NCBI GenBank assembly: GCA_964595865.1
Contig: CAZQRL010000006.1
Location: 71,738-135,737, forward strand
Reading direction: 5' to 3'
Length of the DNA stretch: 64,000 nt
Source of the DNA: an uncultured Chthoniobacteraceae bacterium
GTDB taxonomy: Bacteria; Verrucomicrobiota; Verrucomicrobiia; Chthoniobacterales; DYNR01
In this document: piece after piece, positions 8,288 to 13,116 of the stretch
Numbering within the stretch: position 1 is the first letter of the stretch
Layout of the letters: every line of letters begins with the position of its first letter
Program-made: the position numbers and the translations under genes
The notes under the pieces: generated by a model
The model's database searches: none
Told to the model about the DNA's origin: nothing
The model's input: the letters and a program-made list of their open reading frames with translations, nothing else

Positions 8288-9664
8288 TCAGGGCCCCGTT
8301 TTGAACTCGGCCACGATCGCTTGCAGGGTTTGTTTGGCGTCGCCGAAGAGCATTCGGGCATTGGGGGCAACGAAGAGCGGATTATCCACGCCGGCAAACC
8401 CCGCTTTCATCGAGCGCTTCATCACGATGACGGTGCGGGCCTGATCCACATTGATGATAGGCATGCCGTAGAGCGGGCTGTTTTTGTCCTCGCGGGCTGC
8501 GGGATTCACGACATCGTTGGCGCCAATGACCAGCGCGATATCCACCGAGGTCATGAGTGGATTGACGTCATCGGTTTCCGCCAACTGCTCATACGGGACA
8601 TCGGCTTCGGCCAAGAGCACATTCATGTGCCCAGGCATACGGCCGGCCACAGCGTGGATGGCAAATTTGACTTCGGTGCCATTGTTTTCGAGGAGTTCCG
8701 CCAGCTCTTTGACCACGTGCTGAGCTTGGGCTACCGCCATGCCGTATCCTGGGACAATAATGACCGAGCGCGCGGCTTCGAGGAGCAAATAGGTATCGCT
8801 GGCAGAGATGGGCTTGGGTTCCCCCTGCAAGGAATCCCCTACTCCGCCAGTGCCGGCCCCGACTCCGCCAAAGAGCACGTTGGCCAGAGAGCGATTCATG
8901 GCTTTACACATGATTTGCGTGAGGATGATGCCGCTGGCACCGACGAGCGCTCCGGAGACGATGAGCACGGTATTACCAATGACAAAGCCTGCCGCGCAGG
9001 CGGCGATGCCGGAGTAGCTATTCAGGAGGGAGATGACCACTGGCATATCGGCACCACCGATTGGAATCACCAGCAGAATGCCCAAAACCAACCCTAGAAC
9101 CACCACCGCCAAGAGCCAAGGGTAAGCTTGGCTGGGCGCGAGGATAAAAAGCGTCCCCAAGGCTACCGTTCCAAGAAGCACGAGAAGATTTAGCCAAATC
9201 TGCCCGGGAAAAATCACCGGCTTCCCGCTGAGGGTCTCGGAGAGTTTGCCGTAGGCCACCAGACTGCCGCTGAAGGTCACCCCACCGATCAAAATAGCCA
9301 AGATCGCAGGCAACGAAGCGCTCAGAGGCATTTCAGGGCGCAAATCGTATTCCGCCCAGGCTACCGCCAAGCTCGCCAGACCGCCAAAGCCATTGAAGAG
9401 CGCGACCATCTCCGGCATGGCCGTCATTGGCACCCGCAAGGCCAGAATCAGCCCGACGGCAGTTCCCAGAACCAGCCCCAAGGCGATCCAATGATACTGC
9501 AGCCCTTGCGCGGTGAGCGTCAGCACCACCGCCAGGAGCATACCCACAGCGGAAATTGTATTTCCTTGCCGGGCAGTGCTTTGTGAACTAAGAAGCTTCA
9601 ACCCCAGGATGAACAGCACCGAGGCGACGATGTAGCCGAGATTGATCCAATCGAACGCAAGCAT
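8288..9664 (-). CDS. pntB: NAD(P) transhydrogenase beta subunit
   Basis: AMPEMVALFNGFGGLAS, GGADMPVVISLLNSYSG, VPGYGMAVAQAQH, VAGRMPGHMNVLLAEA. Confidence 0.97.
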   Translation of the reverse strand: MLAFDWINLGYIVASVLFILGLKLLSSQSTARQGNTISAVGMLLAVVLTLTAQGLQYHWIALGLVLGTAVGLILALRVPMTAMPEMVALFNGFGGLASLAVAWAEYDLRPEMPLSASLPAILAILIGGVTFSGSLVAYGKLSETLSGKPVIFPGQIWLNLLVLLGTVALGTLFILAPSQAYPWLLAVVVLGLVLGILLVIPIGGADMPVVISLLNSYSGIAACAAGFVIGNTVLIVSGALVGASGIILTQIMCKAMNRSLANVLFGGVGAGTGGVGDSLQGEPKPISASDTYLLLEAARSVIIVPGYGMAVAQAQHVVKELAELLENNGTEVKFAIHAVAGRMPGHMNVLLAEADVPYEQLAETDDVNPLMTSVDIALVIGANDVVNPAAREDKNSPLYGMPIINVDQARTVIVMKRSMKAGFAGVDNPLFVAPNARMLFGDAKQTLQAIVAEFKTGP

Positions 9665-9945
9665 CAGGAGTCCTTCTTTTTGCTTTTGAACATCCGCAGC
9701 ATGCGGTCGGTAACGACATAGCCTCCGACGACGTTCGTCGTTGCCAAAGCCACAGCGAGGATGCCGAGCACAGTCGCCAAGACGCTATTTCCGGCATGCC
9801 CGGCGGCCAGCAGGGCTCCGACGATGGTGATCCCCGAGATGGCATTCGACCCCGACATAAGCGGCGTGTGCAGTTGCGACGGCACCTTGTTGATCAGCTC
9901 GAAGCCGAGGAAAATCGAGAGCACGAAGACAAAGAGCAGGAGCAT
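9664..9945 (-). CDS. pntAB: NAD(P) transhydrogenase alpha subunit part 2
   Basis: KVPSQLHTPLMSGSNAISGI...NVVGGYVVTDRML. Confidence 0.95.
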   Translation of the reverse strand: MLLLFVFVLSIFLGFELINKVPSQLHTPLMSGSNAISGITIVGALLAAGHAGNSVLATVLGILAVALATTNVVGGYVVTDRMLRMFKSKKKDS

Positions 9946-9954
9946 GGCGGGAAA

Positions 9955-11118
9955 TCAGGTTGTGCCAGAAGTGAGCAGTTCTCGCACCCGTGGGGAGACG
10001 ATTTCCCCGCCTCGGGTTACCACGGCGCTGCGGGCGATTTCGTCCTCTGGCGCCAGGGTCAGGCCGGATTCCGCGTGCCAAAAGTGGCTGATGAGATTCG
10101 CGATATTGGCCGAGAGGGCCAAGCTGGCATCGCGGGGATGGTGACAAGGCAGATTGCCTGCTCCGAGAATGCGCACTCCATGACGTATCGTCTCCTGATT
10201 AGGCACACTGCCTTCGACGTTTCCCCCGGTGCCGACAGCGAGATCTAGCACCACACTCCCGGGACGCATTCCGGCAACCATGGAGTCCGTTATTAGGCGG
10301 GGCGCGGGCCGACCGAAGACTTGTGCGGTCGTAATGACGACATCCGATTCGGCGCAGGCTTTGGCCATGCCGACTTGTTGCAGGGATATTTGTTCGGGGG
10401 TGAGCTCTTTGGCGTAGCCCTGCTCGGTTTGCCCGGTTTCCCCAAGCTGGATTTTTAAGAAACGCGCGCCCAAGGACTTGACCTGTTCTTCAACCGTGGG
10501 TCGGGTATCGAAGGCGGTCACGCGTGCCCCGAGGCGCTTGGCGGTGGCAATCGCCTGTAAACCAGCCACCCCCACCCCGATCACCAAAACTTTGGCCGGT
10601 TGCAGAGTGCCAGCCGGGGTCATCATCATGGGAAAGATTTTATCCAGGCGGTTGGCCGCAAGCAGCACGGCCGCGTAACCGGCCAAGCTGGCCTGGGAGC
10701 TGAGGGCATCCATTTTTTGCGCCAGGGTGGTGCGAGGAATCAGCTCCAGGCTCACGCTTTGCAGGCCAGCCTGGCGCAGACCTTCGACTTCCTCAAAGTG
10801 GCTGAATGGGTCCAAAAAGCTGATGGTCGTGGCAGAGGTCTTGAGCCGCGCGAGATCTTCGGCTGGGGGGCAATGGACGGCGATGAGCACATCGGCCACC
10901 CGCAGGCCCTGTTCGCGTGTCGGCACCACCGTGACTCCGGCGGCCGCGTAGTCGGTGTCGGTAAACCCAGCATTCTGTCCGGCCCCGCTTTCCACCCCGA
11001 CCTCCAATCCCAAGGAAATGAGTTTGCGTGCGCTTTCAGGAGTGAGAGCAACCCGTGTCTCCACAGCTCCGGACTCCCTGAGGCAAAAAAGCACCCCTTT
11101 GGCAGACTGCGCGGACAT
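9955..11118 (-). CDS. pntAA: NAD(P) transhydrogenase alpha subunit part 1
   Basis: ETRVALTPE, AQKMDALSSQ, VIGVGVAGLQAIATAKRLGA, VVLDLAVGTGGNVE. Confidence 0.95.
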   Translation of the reverse strand: MSAQSAKGVLFCLRESGAVETRVALTPESARKLISLGLEVGVESGAGQNAGFTDTDYAAAGVTVVPTREQGLRVADVLIAVHCPPAEDLARLKTSATTISFLDPFSHFEEVEGLRQAGLQSVSLELIPRTTLAQKMDALSSQASLAGYAAVLLAANRLDKIFPMMMTPAGTLQPAKVLVIGVGVAGLQAIATAKRLGARVTAFDTRPTVEEQVKSLGARFLKIQLGETGQTEQGYAKELTPEQISLQQVGMAKACAESDVVITTAQVFGRPAPRLITDSMVAGMRPGSVVLDLAVGTGGNVEGSVPNQETIRHGVRILGAGNLPCHHPRDASLALSANIANLISHFWHAESGLTLAPEDEIARSAVVTRGGEIVSPRVRELLTSGTT

Positions 11119-11176
11119 GCAAGTCTCTTTAGATTTCGTGCTTTTTCTGGTCAAGCATGCTTCGCTTCCGCAGCAA

Positions 11177-11217
11177 GAAAAAATTGGGGCACGCCCCTTG
11201 CATCAGGACGTGCCCCA
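11177..11217 (-). terminator. Rho-independent terminator of the Cys-rich peptide gene
   Basis: Minus strand TGGGGCACG...CGTGCCCCA stem followed by ATTTTTT, about 22 nt after the stop at 11239. Confidence 0.7.
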
Positions 11218-11238
11218 GGATTTGGCTTCTGCTAGCGC

Positions 11239-11379
11239 TTATTCGCAGCAGGATTTGCAATCTCCCTTGCAGCACTCTACGCATTTGCCTTTGCAGCATT
11301 CGGCGCAGGGCTTTTTGTTTTCCGCTTGGGCAGAGAAGCTCCACCCGAGGGCTAACAAGGCGATGAGAAGTGATTTCAT
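11239..11379 (-). CDS. 46-aa secreted Cys-rich peptide (metallothionein-like)
   Basis: MKSLLIALLALGWSFSAQA signal, then ENKKPCAECCKGKCVECCKGDCKSCCE (9 Cys, three CxxCC units). Confidence 0.7.
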   Translation of the reverse strand: MKSLLIALLALGWSFSAQAENKKPCAECCKGKCVECCKGDCKSCCE

Positions 11380-11398
11380 GGTCATTCTTTCATTGCTA

Positions 11399-11460
11399 AG
11401 GTTTGACGCGGGTTTCAGAGGAGTCCGGAAAGGACTCCCCCCAACTGCGGAGTCAAACCT
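11399..11460. other. Nested inverted-repeat element (candidate structured leader RNA)
   Basis: Outer AGGTTTGAC/GTCAAACCT (9 bp) encloses inner GGAGTCC-GGAAA-GGACTCC hairpin. Confidence 0.45.
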
Positions 11461-11851
11461 GGCAACGCGGAGGCGGAAACGGAGGAGCTTCCGAACGGCT
11501 GGGGCCACGAAAATTTTCCGAGCCGTAACTCACTCCGTTGAATCCCGGAGTGGGTGTCTTAGGCGAGGTTTGCGCCAAAGTAGCAACCAGGTGCTGGGCC
11601 GGAGCCGCACAAGCGGCCGAAACCGGGCAGCCGCAGGTTATCGGTTGAGTTCCGCTCGAGCCATGGGAAACGGAACACGCCTCCTCACAGCAGCAGTTTG
11701 CAGATGGGGCGGCTGGGGCGGAAATCGGAGAACCGGCAAAAACCATGCTGACGAAGAGCGCGAAAATCCCCGGGCAGGCCAGCCAAGCGGAGCTCTGCCG
11801 TCTTGCGGCTGAGGGGGCATTGCGTGTGGTTCTGAAATCCATCTCCACCAT
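11453..11851 (-). CDS. Small exported Cys-rich hypothetical protein
   Basis: Hydrophobic segment, then CCCEEAC...CGC...C and a Pro-rich APP C-terminus. Start uncertain. Confidence 0.45.
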   Translation of the reverse strand: MVEMDFRTTRNAPSAARRQSSAWLACPGIFALFVSMVFAGSPISAPAAPSANCCCEEACSVSHGSSGTQPITCGCPVSAACAAPAQHLVATLAQTSPKTPTPGFNGVSYGSENFRGPSRSEAPPFPPPRCQV

Positions 11852-11910
11852 GAAATCTACACTCTAAGCCGAAAATTAGCAAATGCCTCGACGCGGAAAT
11901 CTTTTGGGAT

Positions 11911-13116
11911 TTGCATTTCGCGTTTGACCTCCCCCCACGTCGGGCTCAGCTTTCTGCTGTGGAACAGCCTCTGCGAATTTTGGCGGCAGTAACAATCGGG
12001 TGGGTATTCGCCGCCCCTTTCGCCGCTGCGGCAACTTATCCGCAAATCCTCGACCCCAGCCTTCTCAGCCAAGCGCCGTATTCTTCTGCCGGGGTCGTGG
12101 CCACGAACTATGGGGAAGGCAGCGGAGCTGTGGCGCGCGACCCCAAATTAATTTACAGCTGTGCGCATCTTGTCTTCGACCGCGGACGCTGGGCCAGCAG
12201 CTTTCGTTTTGCCCGGGCTTATCATAGCCAGAACCAGCCACGGTCTTCAGCTTATGCCACGGCCCGCGGCTACCGCTATTTCTCCAGCTATGCGGGCACG
12301 GAGCGGAACTCCGATTTTGCCGTGGATTTCATTATCGCCTATGGCAGTGCTTCGACGAATTTCGGTCCGGCGGTTCCCGTATTGGCCCCCGGCGATGCGG
12401 ATCTCATGAGCAGCGCGAGCAAAATGATTTTGGGGTATCCGGGGGAAATTGACCACACCGGAGAAGAAGGCTCGTATCATCAGCGGATTACCGGTCCCTT
12501 CACGCTGCCTTTCACCCGGGTTCTCAAAGCTTTTCTGGAAGTGGTCGATGTATCCACCGGACCTGGAAATAGTGGCGGACCGGTGCTGGTTTGGAAAAAC
12601 GGCAGCTACCATCTTGCCGGGGTGCTGGTTGCCGGCACCTACAATTCCGCCGGGATCTTCGCTCTCAATAGTGCCGCCGAGAGGATGGCTTCCGATGCCC
12701 TCACGGCTTCCAGCGCCGCCTCCCCTACCCCCGACCCAAATAATCCCGCGCGCCAAATCACCGTTACCAACGATCGGGCTACACTGTTGCCCGACGGGCG
12801 TGGTTCCATCCGTCGCAACTTGCCGGTGCGACGTCAGGGAAAAGTAACCACTGCCGTGACCTTGGATTTGCAAGTCGAGGCCGAATACCAAGGCGACTTG
12901 GAAATCTGGTTGCGCAGCCCCCGTGGACGCGTCCATTGGATTACGGAGCCTGCTGAGGATAATGACGACACCGACATCAACCTCACCGGAGAAAATCTCA
13001 CGCCGGTTTTTGATGGCTACAATCCGAATGGCACCTGGGCACTGTTTCTGGCCGATCGCTTTCGCGAGGACCGGGCGCGTTTTGTTCGGGCCAGCCTAAA
13101 CATCGCCTCGCAGTAA
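11911..13116 (+). CDS. Secreted trypsin-like serine protease with C-terminal proprotein-convertase P-domain
   Basis: SCAHL (His), DFAV (Asp), GPGNSGGPV (Ser); C-terminal YQGDLEIWLRSP...NGTWALFLAD. Confidence 0.8.
   Translation: MHFAFDLPPRRAQLSAVEQPLRILAAVTIGWVFAAPFAAAATYPQILDPSLLSQAPYSSAGVVATNYGEGSGAVARDPKLIYSCAHLVFDRGRWASSFRFARAYHSQNQPRSSAYATARGYRYFSSYAGTERNSDFAVDFIIAYGSASTNFGPAVPVLAPGDADLMSSASKMILGYPGEIDHTGEEGSYHQRITGPFTLPFTRVLKAFLEVVDVSTGPGNSGGPVLVWKNGSYHLAGVLVAGTYNSAGIFALNSAAERMASDALTASSAASPTPDPNNPARQITVTNDRATLLPDGRGSIRRNLPVRRQGKVTTAVTLDLQVEAEYQGDLEIWLRSPRGRVHWITEPAEDNDDTDINLTGENLTPVFDGYNPNGTWALFLADRFREDRARFVRASLNIASQ

Follow-up and report, generated by a model that had tools for sequence, protein, structure and literature searches.

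The window analysed here is a stretch of 64,000 nucleotides of contig CAZQRL010000006.1, from an uncultured Chthoniobacteraceae bacterium. On its minus strand, a gene of 46 codons plus a TAA stop (11239-11379), without prior annotation, encodes a tiny Cys-rich peptide, and it is preceded on the same strand by a gene for a protein of 132 residues (11453-11851) that resembles, by its motifs, the leader protein CutF. The 46-codon open reading frame (ORF) is a real, conserved gene under selection, with an export signal. Because the pairing of the peptide gene with an upstream partner is constant and a terminator closes the pair, while the outer genes differ, the conserved unit is a bicistronic cassette of leader, spacer, peptide and terminator, measuring about 670 bp as a whole; a preliminary description, made from the sequence alone, had taken the peptide for a stand-alone gene. 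We consider it probable that the cassette is a sense-and-sequester two-gene unit, the output of which would be a periplasmic thiolate peptide, left unmodified, that takes up Cu(I) or further soft metals. By analogy, it would join a nascent-chain metal-sensor unit with a periplasmic copper-buffering peptide, both of known kinds; what is new is the tiny exported metallothionein-like peptide, which is not among the published classes of downstream targets of CutF-like leaders. From these features we infer metal binding, copper as the metal, and the direction and mode of regulation.

The exported CxxCC peptide and its family

Translation of the gene gives a pre-peptide of 46 residues, MKSLLIALLALGWSFSAQAENKKPCAECCKGKCVECCKGDCKSCCE followed by the stop, which divides into a signal peptide, MKSLLIALLALGWSFSAQA, and a mature part, ENKKPCAECCKGKCVECCKGDCKSCCE. 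The signal (residues 1-19; 11323-11379, minus strand) shows by inspection the n/h/c layout of Sec-type signals and ends in the cleavage site A-Q-A. The mature peptide of 27 residues (ENKKP-CAECC-KGK-CVECC-KGD-CKSCC-E; 11242-11322, minus strand) contains nine Cys (33%) arranged in three CxxCC units, has Lys, Gly and Asp in the spacers and is devoid of Phe, Tyr, Trp and His. The preliminary description had given the same signal of 19 residues ending AQA and the same mature part with nine Cys, three CxxCC units and no aromatic residues, and translation bears it out. Its statement that the unit is repeated at the DNA level holds in part: of their 24 nt, units 1 and 2 (CAECCKGK and CVECCKGD) share 17, and they contain a direct repeat of 11 nt (TGCTGCAAGGG and TGCTGCAAAGG, 24 nt apart), so that the repeat exists, only in a modest form. 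An alternative in-frame GTG start would give a product of 89 amino acids (11239-11508) and would overlap the stop of the leader gene.

A word-indexed search returned five homologues of 46-47 residues, with 54-65% identity and all Cys kept; a genome scan added ten further loci with the peptide gene, in metagenome-assembled genomes (MAGs), and a profile search over all 1.84 billion cluster representatives gave 46 matches, about 45 of them true. The small-ORF homologues for which the preliminary description had proposed a search thus exist. True matches share the signal peptide, the three CxxCC units and a Lys-rich end, are mostly 46-61 amino acids as called (in the longer ones additional residues precede the conserved MK start or extend the end) and are named 'hypothetical' or not at all. 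Nine of the ten scan loci are in MAGs labelled Chthoniobacterales, Verrucomicrobiales, Verrucomicrobiaceae, Prosthecobacter or Verrucomicrobia, and one in a MAG labelled Blastochloridaceae. The Blastochloridaceae (Alphaproteobacteria) locus, L017 (CAYTLD010000006.1), is a typical cassette, and would be explained either by mis-binning or by transfer out of Verrucomicrobiota. Within the phylum the family is sparse, with about seven convincing carriers among 401 sampled genomes (the host genome, G000, and G240, G369, G351, G297, G237 and G174), the remaining weak matches being partial or doubtful and standing outside the count. The exact peptide sequence of the window has no entry in a collection of 15 billion proteins; therefore its gene was probably not called in the source annotation, and the family illustrates how small genes escape annotation.

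The Cys spacing, on whose conservation in relatives the preliminary description had made its proposal depend, is invariant in 15 aligned relatives; variants with six and 11 Cys occur in the family beside the conserved nine. Among six orthologues of 46 residues, the ratio of nonsynonymous to synonymous substitution rates (dN/dS) of the mature part is 0.07-0.34, indicating purifying selection, with synonymous sites near saturation (proportion of synonymous differences, pS, 0.3-0.86), and the signal peptide is less constrained. Moreover, among the frames of 40 or more codons in the 2.77-Mb genome, the peptide gene alone has three CxxCC units, if one low-complexity off-frame run is disregarded. 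The uniqueness of the frame, the invariant Cys and the low dN/dS together make the ORF more than a product of chance. In three aligned members (L018-L020) and in the representative P0034, a lipobox L-S-[SA]-C replaces the AxA site, and therefore the product would stay in the envelope; as judged from sequence, these lipoprotein signals would fit a periplasmic role.

No family of Pfam or NCBIfam matches the peptide, the only listings being noise (ExtS, E = 0.076; FeoB_associated, E = 10); no known metallothionein family of either collection does so even at E <= 10, and a sequence search of the PDB with the mature peptide gave no match at E <= 10. The AlphaFold2 model (mean pLDDT 65; 71-85 in the mature part) has short helical turns at every CxxCC, which would be compatible with a peptide folding solely around metal. 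In composition the peptide is like the metallothioneins with which it was compared (bacterial SmtA, BmtA, PmtA and MymT, fungal Cu-metallothioneins and the mammalian beta-domain), since it is about 33% Cys, Lys-rich, very short, free of aromatic residues and His, and mixes CxxC with CC. Its number of thiolates, nine, also equals that of the mammalian beta-domain, a ligand set able to take up three divalent ions or roughly six Cu(I). By sequence the peptide is unrelated to these proteins, however, and the regular array of three CxxCC is no known metallothionein signature. To our knowledge, bacterial metallothioneins are rare, cytoplasmic and without signal peptide, and the periplasmic copper buffers known to us fall into folded proteins, namely CusF, CopC, Csp1 and the multicopper oxidases, and peptides modified by an enzyme, namely the bufferins. 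Csp1 of methanotrophs is likewise exported and stores Cu(I) outside the cytoplasm, bound by numerous Cys thiolates, but with about 120 residues it folds into a four-helix bundle, assembles into tetramers and leaves by the Tat route, whereas the peptide is a Sec-exported chain of 27 residues without a bundle. PmtA, however, is reported at the cell surface (PMC11237414). Searches of the literature on CxxCC peptides, periplasmic metallothioneins and CutF in Verrucomicrobia yielded no description of an exported CxxCC peptide.

A peptide so rich in Cys could be built on disulfides and, without any part in metal binding, serve the envelope as a thiol/redox buffer or be consumed as a sacrificial reductant; a structural or an antimicrobial role is also conceivable. 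Thiol-oxidative stress, and not metal, would then be sensed by the upstream protein. Sec export leads into an oxidising compartment, which favours disulfides, and therefore the nine thiols might form these instead of binding metal; the short helices modelled at every CxxCC with moderate confidence can be read in the same sense, and in one locus a gene for a DUF255 thioredoxin-domain protein lies downstream. Redox state is also part of CutF-type switches, as stalling has been proposed to depend on whether the nascent sensor forms disulfides or binds Cu (bioRxiv 10.1101/2025.02.05.636593). Against such a role stand the odd and conserved number of Cys and the combination of Lys/Gly/Asp spacers with the lack of a hydrophobic core and of aromatic residues, which is typical of metallothioneins and not of knotted peptides. 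Furthermore, the lipoprotein variants speak against a secreted toxin, and immunity or export genes do not recur. On balance we regard a disulfide-based function as unlikely.

Bufferins (Buf1/DUF2282, Buf2) and oxazolins are MNIO-modified, Sec-exported, Cys-bearing and copper-chelating ribosomally synthesized and post-translationally modified peptides (RiPPs), some of them with lipoprotein signals (PMC12452194). Bufferins are encoded in the order bufABC (precursor, MNIO enzyme, DUF2063 partner), bind copper via Cys-derived thiooxazoles and protect from excess copper by sequestration, and some genomes contain stand-alone precursor genes (PMC12452194). The peptide shares with them its small size, its Cys, the Sec signal and the occasional lipoprotein form, and could be such a precursor, either bufferin-like and modified by an MNIO or a radical-SAM thioether peptide, with the enzyme encoded elsewhere. 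However, the host genome (G000; 2.77 Mb, estimated 100% complete) contains no MNIO enzyme (PF05114), a Caulobacter control being positive; therefore the peptide would not be a bufferin-type RiPP, and very few bufferin precursors occur in genomes without that enzyme (PMC12452194). In contrast with bufferin loci, neither the window, where the terminator and then pntA follow the peptide gene, nor the related loci have MNIO or DUF2063 neighbours; the peptide has no DUF2282 match and its partner is a CutF-like leader. As to radical-SAM Cys-rich RiPPs (SCIFF or ranthipeptide), no NCBIfam precursor family matches and no radical-SAM gene was called beside any locus, while the ExtS and FeoB_associated listings are far under the cut-off and neither is a RiPP-precursor family. 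Genes of maturase, transporter or immunity type do not recur in the neighbourhoods of the 20 loci examined. A RiPP precursor is thus very improbable. The preliminary description had proposed an exported metal-binding, metallothionein-like peptide, with a disulfide-rich effector or RiPP-like peptide as the alternative: the former is backed by the context of a CutF-like leader, and the latter is disfavoured by the missing MNIO and by the lack of recurrent maturase, transporter and immunity genes.

The leader gene and the two-gene cassette

All 20 independent loci (20/20) have, directly upstream of the peptide gene and on the same strand, a small gene whose product carries a hydrophobic N-terminus and Cys motifs. 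These partners are of a PPxPPPR type in 12 distinct loci (the window, L004, L007, L011, L012, L013, L017, L021/22, L028, L048, L051 and L053), of a Verrucomicrobiaceae type in seven (L014, L015, L016, L018, L019, L020 and L023) and of a third type in one (L045). In the PPxPPPR type, CCC(xx)C is followed by CxC(P) and then by a C-terminal PPxPPP[RK] with 1-6 residues before the stop, and the spacer between leader and peptide gene is 34-83 nt long. The Verrucomicrobiaceae-type partner, of about 130 amino acids, contains LPxC[WC]C...CPxC...CPC and has spacers of 163-234 nt; its conserved end R-H-x-A-L-L-x may be a distinct arrest or C-terminal motif.

The leader of the window begins with a basic n-region, RNAPSAARRQ, followed by a hydrophobic stretch of 19 residues, AWLACPGIFALFVSMVFAG (residues about 22-40), and its relatives, of about 95-125 amino acids from their likely starts, have an equally basic N-terminus and hydrophobic stretch, in both cases by inspection. 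There follow the motif C53-C54-C55-E-E-A-C59 (11675-11695, minus strand), which includes CxxxC, then C73-G-C75-P76 (11624-11635, minus strand), placed 53 residues ahead of PPP, and finally a putative Pro-rich arrest motif, P123-P-F-P-P-P-R129 (11465-11485, minus strand), with the shared PPP[RK] tail, after which come C-Q-V and the stop. The C-terminus thus reads EAPPFPPPRCQV (PPFPPPRCQV and the stop). CCC is found in 13/13 measured or read loci and lies 61-76 residues from PPP in the ten loci measured; the distance from CxC to PPP is 48-53 residues in nine of ten measured loci, L028 lacking the CxC. In an alignment of seven members the invariant positions are CCC, one Cys (C75), a few Pro and the tail, with a mean column identity of 37%, and such low conservation outside the motifs would be expected for a ruler and not for a folded domain. 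Searched against a set of 5.8 billion proteins, the profile of this alignment retrieved one known member only, being swamped by poly-Pro words; a leader profile search of 400 genomes, in which 12 candidates at most were scored for each genome, missed known carriers for that reason, which makes it unusable for prevalence.

CutF-like leaders are known and widespread. They have been delimited as proteins of fewer than 150 residues that begin with a signal peptide, carry a Cys/His motif (CxxxC in CutF) as well as PP among their last 15 residues, and have a gene of the same orientation downstream, after a spacer mostly shorter than 100 nt (PMC9973294). CutF of Rhodobacter capsulatus (cutFOG operon) has the tail P109-EPEGPPPRL-118; for control by copper the PPP in this tail is essential (bioRxiv 10.1101/2025.02.05.636593). 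As 45 residues separate the Cu motif from the arrest motif, Ozturk et al. suggested that the former sits at the periplasmic mouth of SecY with the tail in the ribosome tunnel, and cutF supplied in trans cannot restore function (PMC9973294). The targets surveyed so far comprise oxidases, efflux-pump components, TonB-dependent receptors, PCuAC, CusF and HupE/UreJ, and Verrucomicrobiota were grouped in that survey under minor 'other' phyla (PMC9973294). Compared with these rules and with the CutF tail, the leader of the window agrees in its size (132 amino acids), its CxxxC-containing Cys motif, its near-terminal PPPR (GPPPRL in CutF), and a downstream gene whose ATG lies 73 nt beyond the end of the leader ORF, across a spacer that bears a hairpin; its hydrophobic N-terminus may be a Sec-type signal, either cleaved or serving as an anchor; the distance from Cys to arrest motif is about 50 residues versus 45 in CutF. 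It differs from CutF in having no PF11162 match and no detectable sequence homology, and in belonging to the phylum Verrucomicrobiota, whereas the cassette differs from cutF-cutO in a hairpin that leaves the ribosome-binding site unmasked and in a downstream gene that is a 46-codon Cys-rich peptide. Other nascent-chain metal sensors with which the leader may be compared are CruR of Bordetella pertussis (PMC9426467) and CopL.

The two products could also be partners at the protein level, the upstream one as a membrane-anchored Cys-rich receptor or chaperone and the peptide as its small soluble ligand or metal shuttle, with the Pro tail as a binding motif. Such a partnership would agree with the pairing being kept in the Verrucomicrobiaceae-type and L045-type loci, where the Pro motif is missing, and with the failure to find the stem-loop masking the Shine-Dalgarno sequence that defines the CutF mechanism. 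It agrees less with the pattern of conservation, in which some 50 variable residues, nearly constant in number, separate the conserved Cys motifs from the conserved PPP[RK] tail, a pattern that a nascent-chain ruler fits better than a folded partner; in addition, the tail corresponds to the arrest motif that experiments have validated in CutF (bioRxiv 10.1101/2025.02.05.636593). We hold this alternative to be quite improbable.

The spacer forms a stem-loop (11399-11460, minus strand) with an outer stem of 9 bp, AGGUUUGAC/GUCAAACCU, and an inner stem of 10 bp; its folding energy is -33.5 kcal/mol (z = -3.1), and 0 of 200 shuffles were equally stable. Its 5' arm holds the UGA stop of the leader (11453-11455), and therefore pausing at PPP-R-C-Q-V-stop would require the ribosome to open the hairpin. 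At the other end of the cassette, an intrinsic terminator (11185-11217, minus strand) with a 13-bp stem of which nine pairs are GC, a 7-nt loop and the U-run tail ATTTTTTCTT begins 21 nt past the TAA stop of the peptide gene, in accordance with the strong terminator placed about 22 nt past the stop in the preliminary description, and separates the cassette from pntA (9955-11154). A strong GC-rich hairpin 3' of the peptide gene is present in nearly all related loci, in most with a U-run. The Rfam search of 10500-12500 gave merely sub-threshold chance matches, on the terminator.

Proposed sensing and sequestration of metal

In the proposed mechanism, the leader would be inserted co-translationally via SecYEG, its CCCxxxC/CxC reaching the periplasmic side while PPFPPPR is still in the ribosome, and a ruler of about 50 residues would couple the Cys motif to the arrest motif. 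The conserved distance of 48-53 residues across otherwise unconserved sequence would fit, by analogy, the idea of SecY mouth and ribosome tunnel put forward for CutF. With Cu(I) or some other thiophilic metal bound by the leader chain during its synthesis, the pause at PPP would last longer, and the longer pause would raise expression of the peptide gene. The pre-peptide of 46 amino acids would be exported by Sec and cut by signal peptidase after AQA, leaving a Lys-rich product of 27 residues whose nine free thiols would bind soft metals in the periplasm as a thiolate cluster. As the sole product under a leader of the copper-sensor type, the peptide is therefore best read as an inducible periplasmic thiolate buffer, a reading supported by its being exported or lipid-anchored, by its metallothionein-like composition and by the conserved count of nine thiols.

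The copper toolkit of the host is unusually reduced. A six-frame search of the genome yielded neither a multicopper oxidase (PF07732) nor an HMA domain (PF00403), the latter being present in 13/14 control genomes; the genome contains one SCO1 and two P1B-type ATPases, with a CPC motif on contig C10 and an SPC motif on contig C3. In the absence of a multicopper oxidase, Cu(I) pumped to the periplasm would be without the usual oxidase sink, and in a host exporting Cu(I) by the CPC-type ATPase the peptide could act as an unmodified exported metallothionein-like buffer.

The same architecture might nevertheless serve another metal, be it Hg(II), Cd(II), Zn(II), Ag(I) or soft metals in general. Vicinal Cys pairs, typical Hg(II) ligands in MerT, MerC and MerA, also suit Cd(II), nine is the number of Cys in the M(II)3-Cys9 cluster formed by the beta-domain of mammalian metallothionein too, and upstream of one locus lie genes for chromate transporters and a heavy-metal ATPase. 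CutF-like proteins are, according to Ozturk et al., not all Cu-specific, but those with Cys only are mostly found upstream of copper genes (PMC9973294). Moreover, SCO1 adjoins the cassette in one lineage, and no mer, czc or ars gene was seen adjoining any of the 20 loci. Specialization for a metal other than copper is in our estimate rather unlikely.

Besides these ligand preferences and the oxidising nature of the periplasm, several observations weigh against the sense-and-sequester reading. The Pro motif is missing from the upstream proteins of the Verrucomicrobiaceae and L045 types, and hhalign found no link between the PPxPPPR-type and the Verrucomicrobiaceae-type proteins. The leader of the window has no match to Pfam DUF2946 (PF11162) at E <= 1, six relatives of the PPxPPPR type have none at E <= 1 to 5, and the sole DUF2946 signal, from the Verrucomicrobiaceae-type L015 (E = 0.024), is under the cut-off. 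Copper-related neighbours occur in only two of about 14 distinct contexts and are cut off from the cassette by the terminator. A GC-rich hairpin is found at the same position in 11 of the 12 PPxPPPR-type spacers, being missing from one of 34 nt, and its z-scores in relatives range from -3.5 to +0.8. The hairpin does not include the ribosome-binding region (GAAAGAA in the window; in relatives GAAAGGA or AAGGAG), and partition-function modelling of 13 loci with and without the footprint of a stalled ribosome barely altered the accessibility of the ribosome-binding site. Hence the Shine-Dalgarno-masking step of the Rhodobacter mechanism has no counterpart here. Masking of the ribosome-binding site by the Pro codons (CCUCC) or by the hairpin, with release by a stalled ribosome, was considered and rejected, as no consistent effect was seen. 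By analogy with other systems, regulation, if any, may act via access to a standby site, via Rho (as for CruR and TnaC) or via mRNA stability.

A bolder version, to which we give somewhat less than an even chance, is that the cassette is a minimal module in which a nascent-chain metal sensor directly controls an unmodified Sec-exported metallothionein, the first periplasmic class in bacteria, acting through a switch without Shine-Dalgarno masking and as the main periplasmic copper defence in Verrucomicrobiota without multicopper oxidase and HMA chaperones. If the sense-and-sequester reading is true, a ribosomal, unmodified and Sec-exported thiolate peptide of 27 residues would be the simplest periplasmic metal sponge known, and sensors of the CutF type would gain a new class of targets and an extension to Verrucomicrobiota. 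The size of the peptide allows its synthesis, and the cassette of about 670 bp makes both halves directly testable in Escherichia coli.

Neighbouring genes and further observations

The genes beyond the pair vary by lineage and include, in addition to pntAB in the window, those for an M48 peptidase, a DUF255 thioredoxin protein, FeoAB, a GGDEF protein and SCO1. Downstream of the terminator, the window has a transhydrogenase operon on the minus strand, with pntAA at 9955-11154, pntAB at 9664-9945 and pntB at 8288-9664. The operon begins 30 nt past the cassette terminator, and this adjacency is not kept in relatives. The possibility that the peptide gene is a Cys-rich attenuation leader for pntAB was rejected, since the signal and the conserved mature part are kept beside unrelated downstream genes and the terminator stands after the peptide. 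In the lineage L007-L010 a SCO1/SenC gene (PF02630, E = 3.4e-24) is next after the peptide gene; the two are separated by a strong terminator, which makes co-transcription unlikely, and the SCO1 start as called in these loci is probably too far upstream. In one other lineage an HMBD-type P-type ATPase is encoded 2.4 kb upstream of the cassette; this gene and SCO1 are the neighbours that hint at copper.

On the opposite side of the leader, a divergent gene on the plus strand (11911-13116) encodes a secreted protein of 401 amino acids with a trypsin-like middle (GPGNSGGP) and, at the C-terminus, a P-domain of the proprotein-convertase kind (PF01483, E = 3.6e-9). Its start is about 60 nt from that of the leader, and therefore the two genes may share a promoter region; a scan of 10900-12100 for sigma-70 promoters found none.

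Outside the window, the host genome contains a second CutF-like ORF (G000:C12:100921-101319, plus strand; 222-620 of L054), of 132 amino acids, with a hydrophobic N-terminus, a C-A-L-C motif and the end PLEPPPPRGA before the stop. About 170 nt after it, at about 101493-102287 (794-1588 of L054), a secreted PEP-CTERM protein of 264 amino acids is encoded. Pfam gave only a borderline PEP-CTERM match for this ORF and its neighbour. The PEP-CTERM protein contains Met-rich stretches, GGMIMPMV and MFMSMGTMMMAH, reminiscent of Cu(I)-binding Met motifs.

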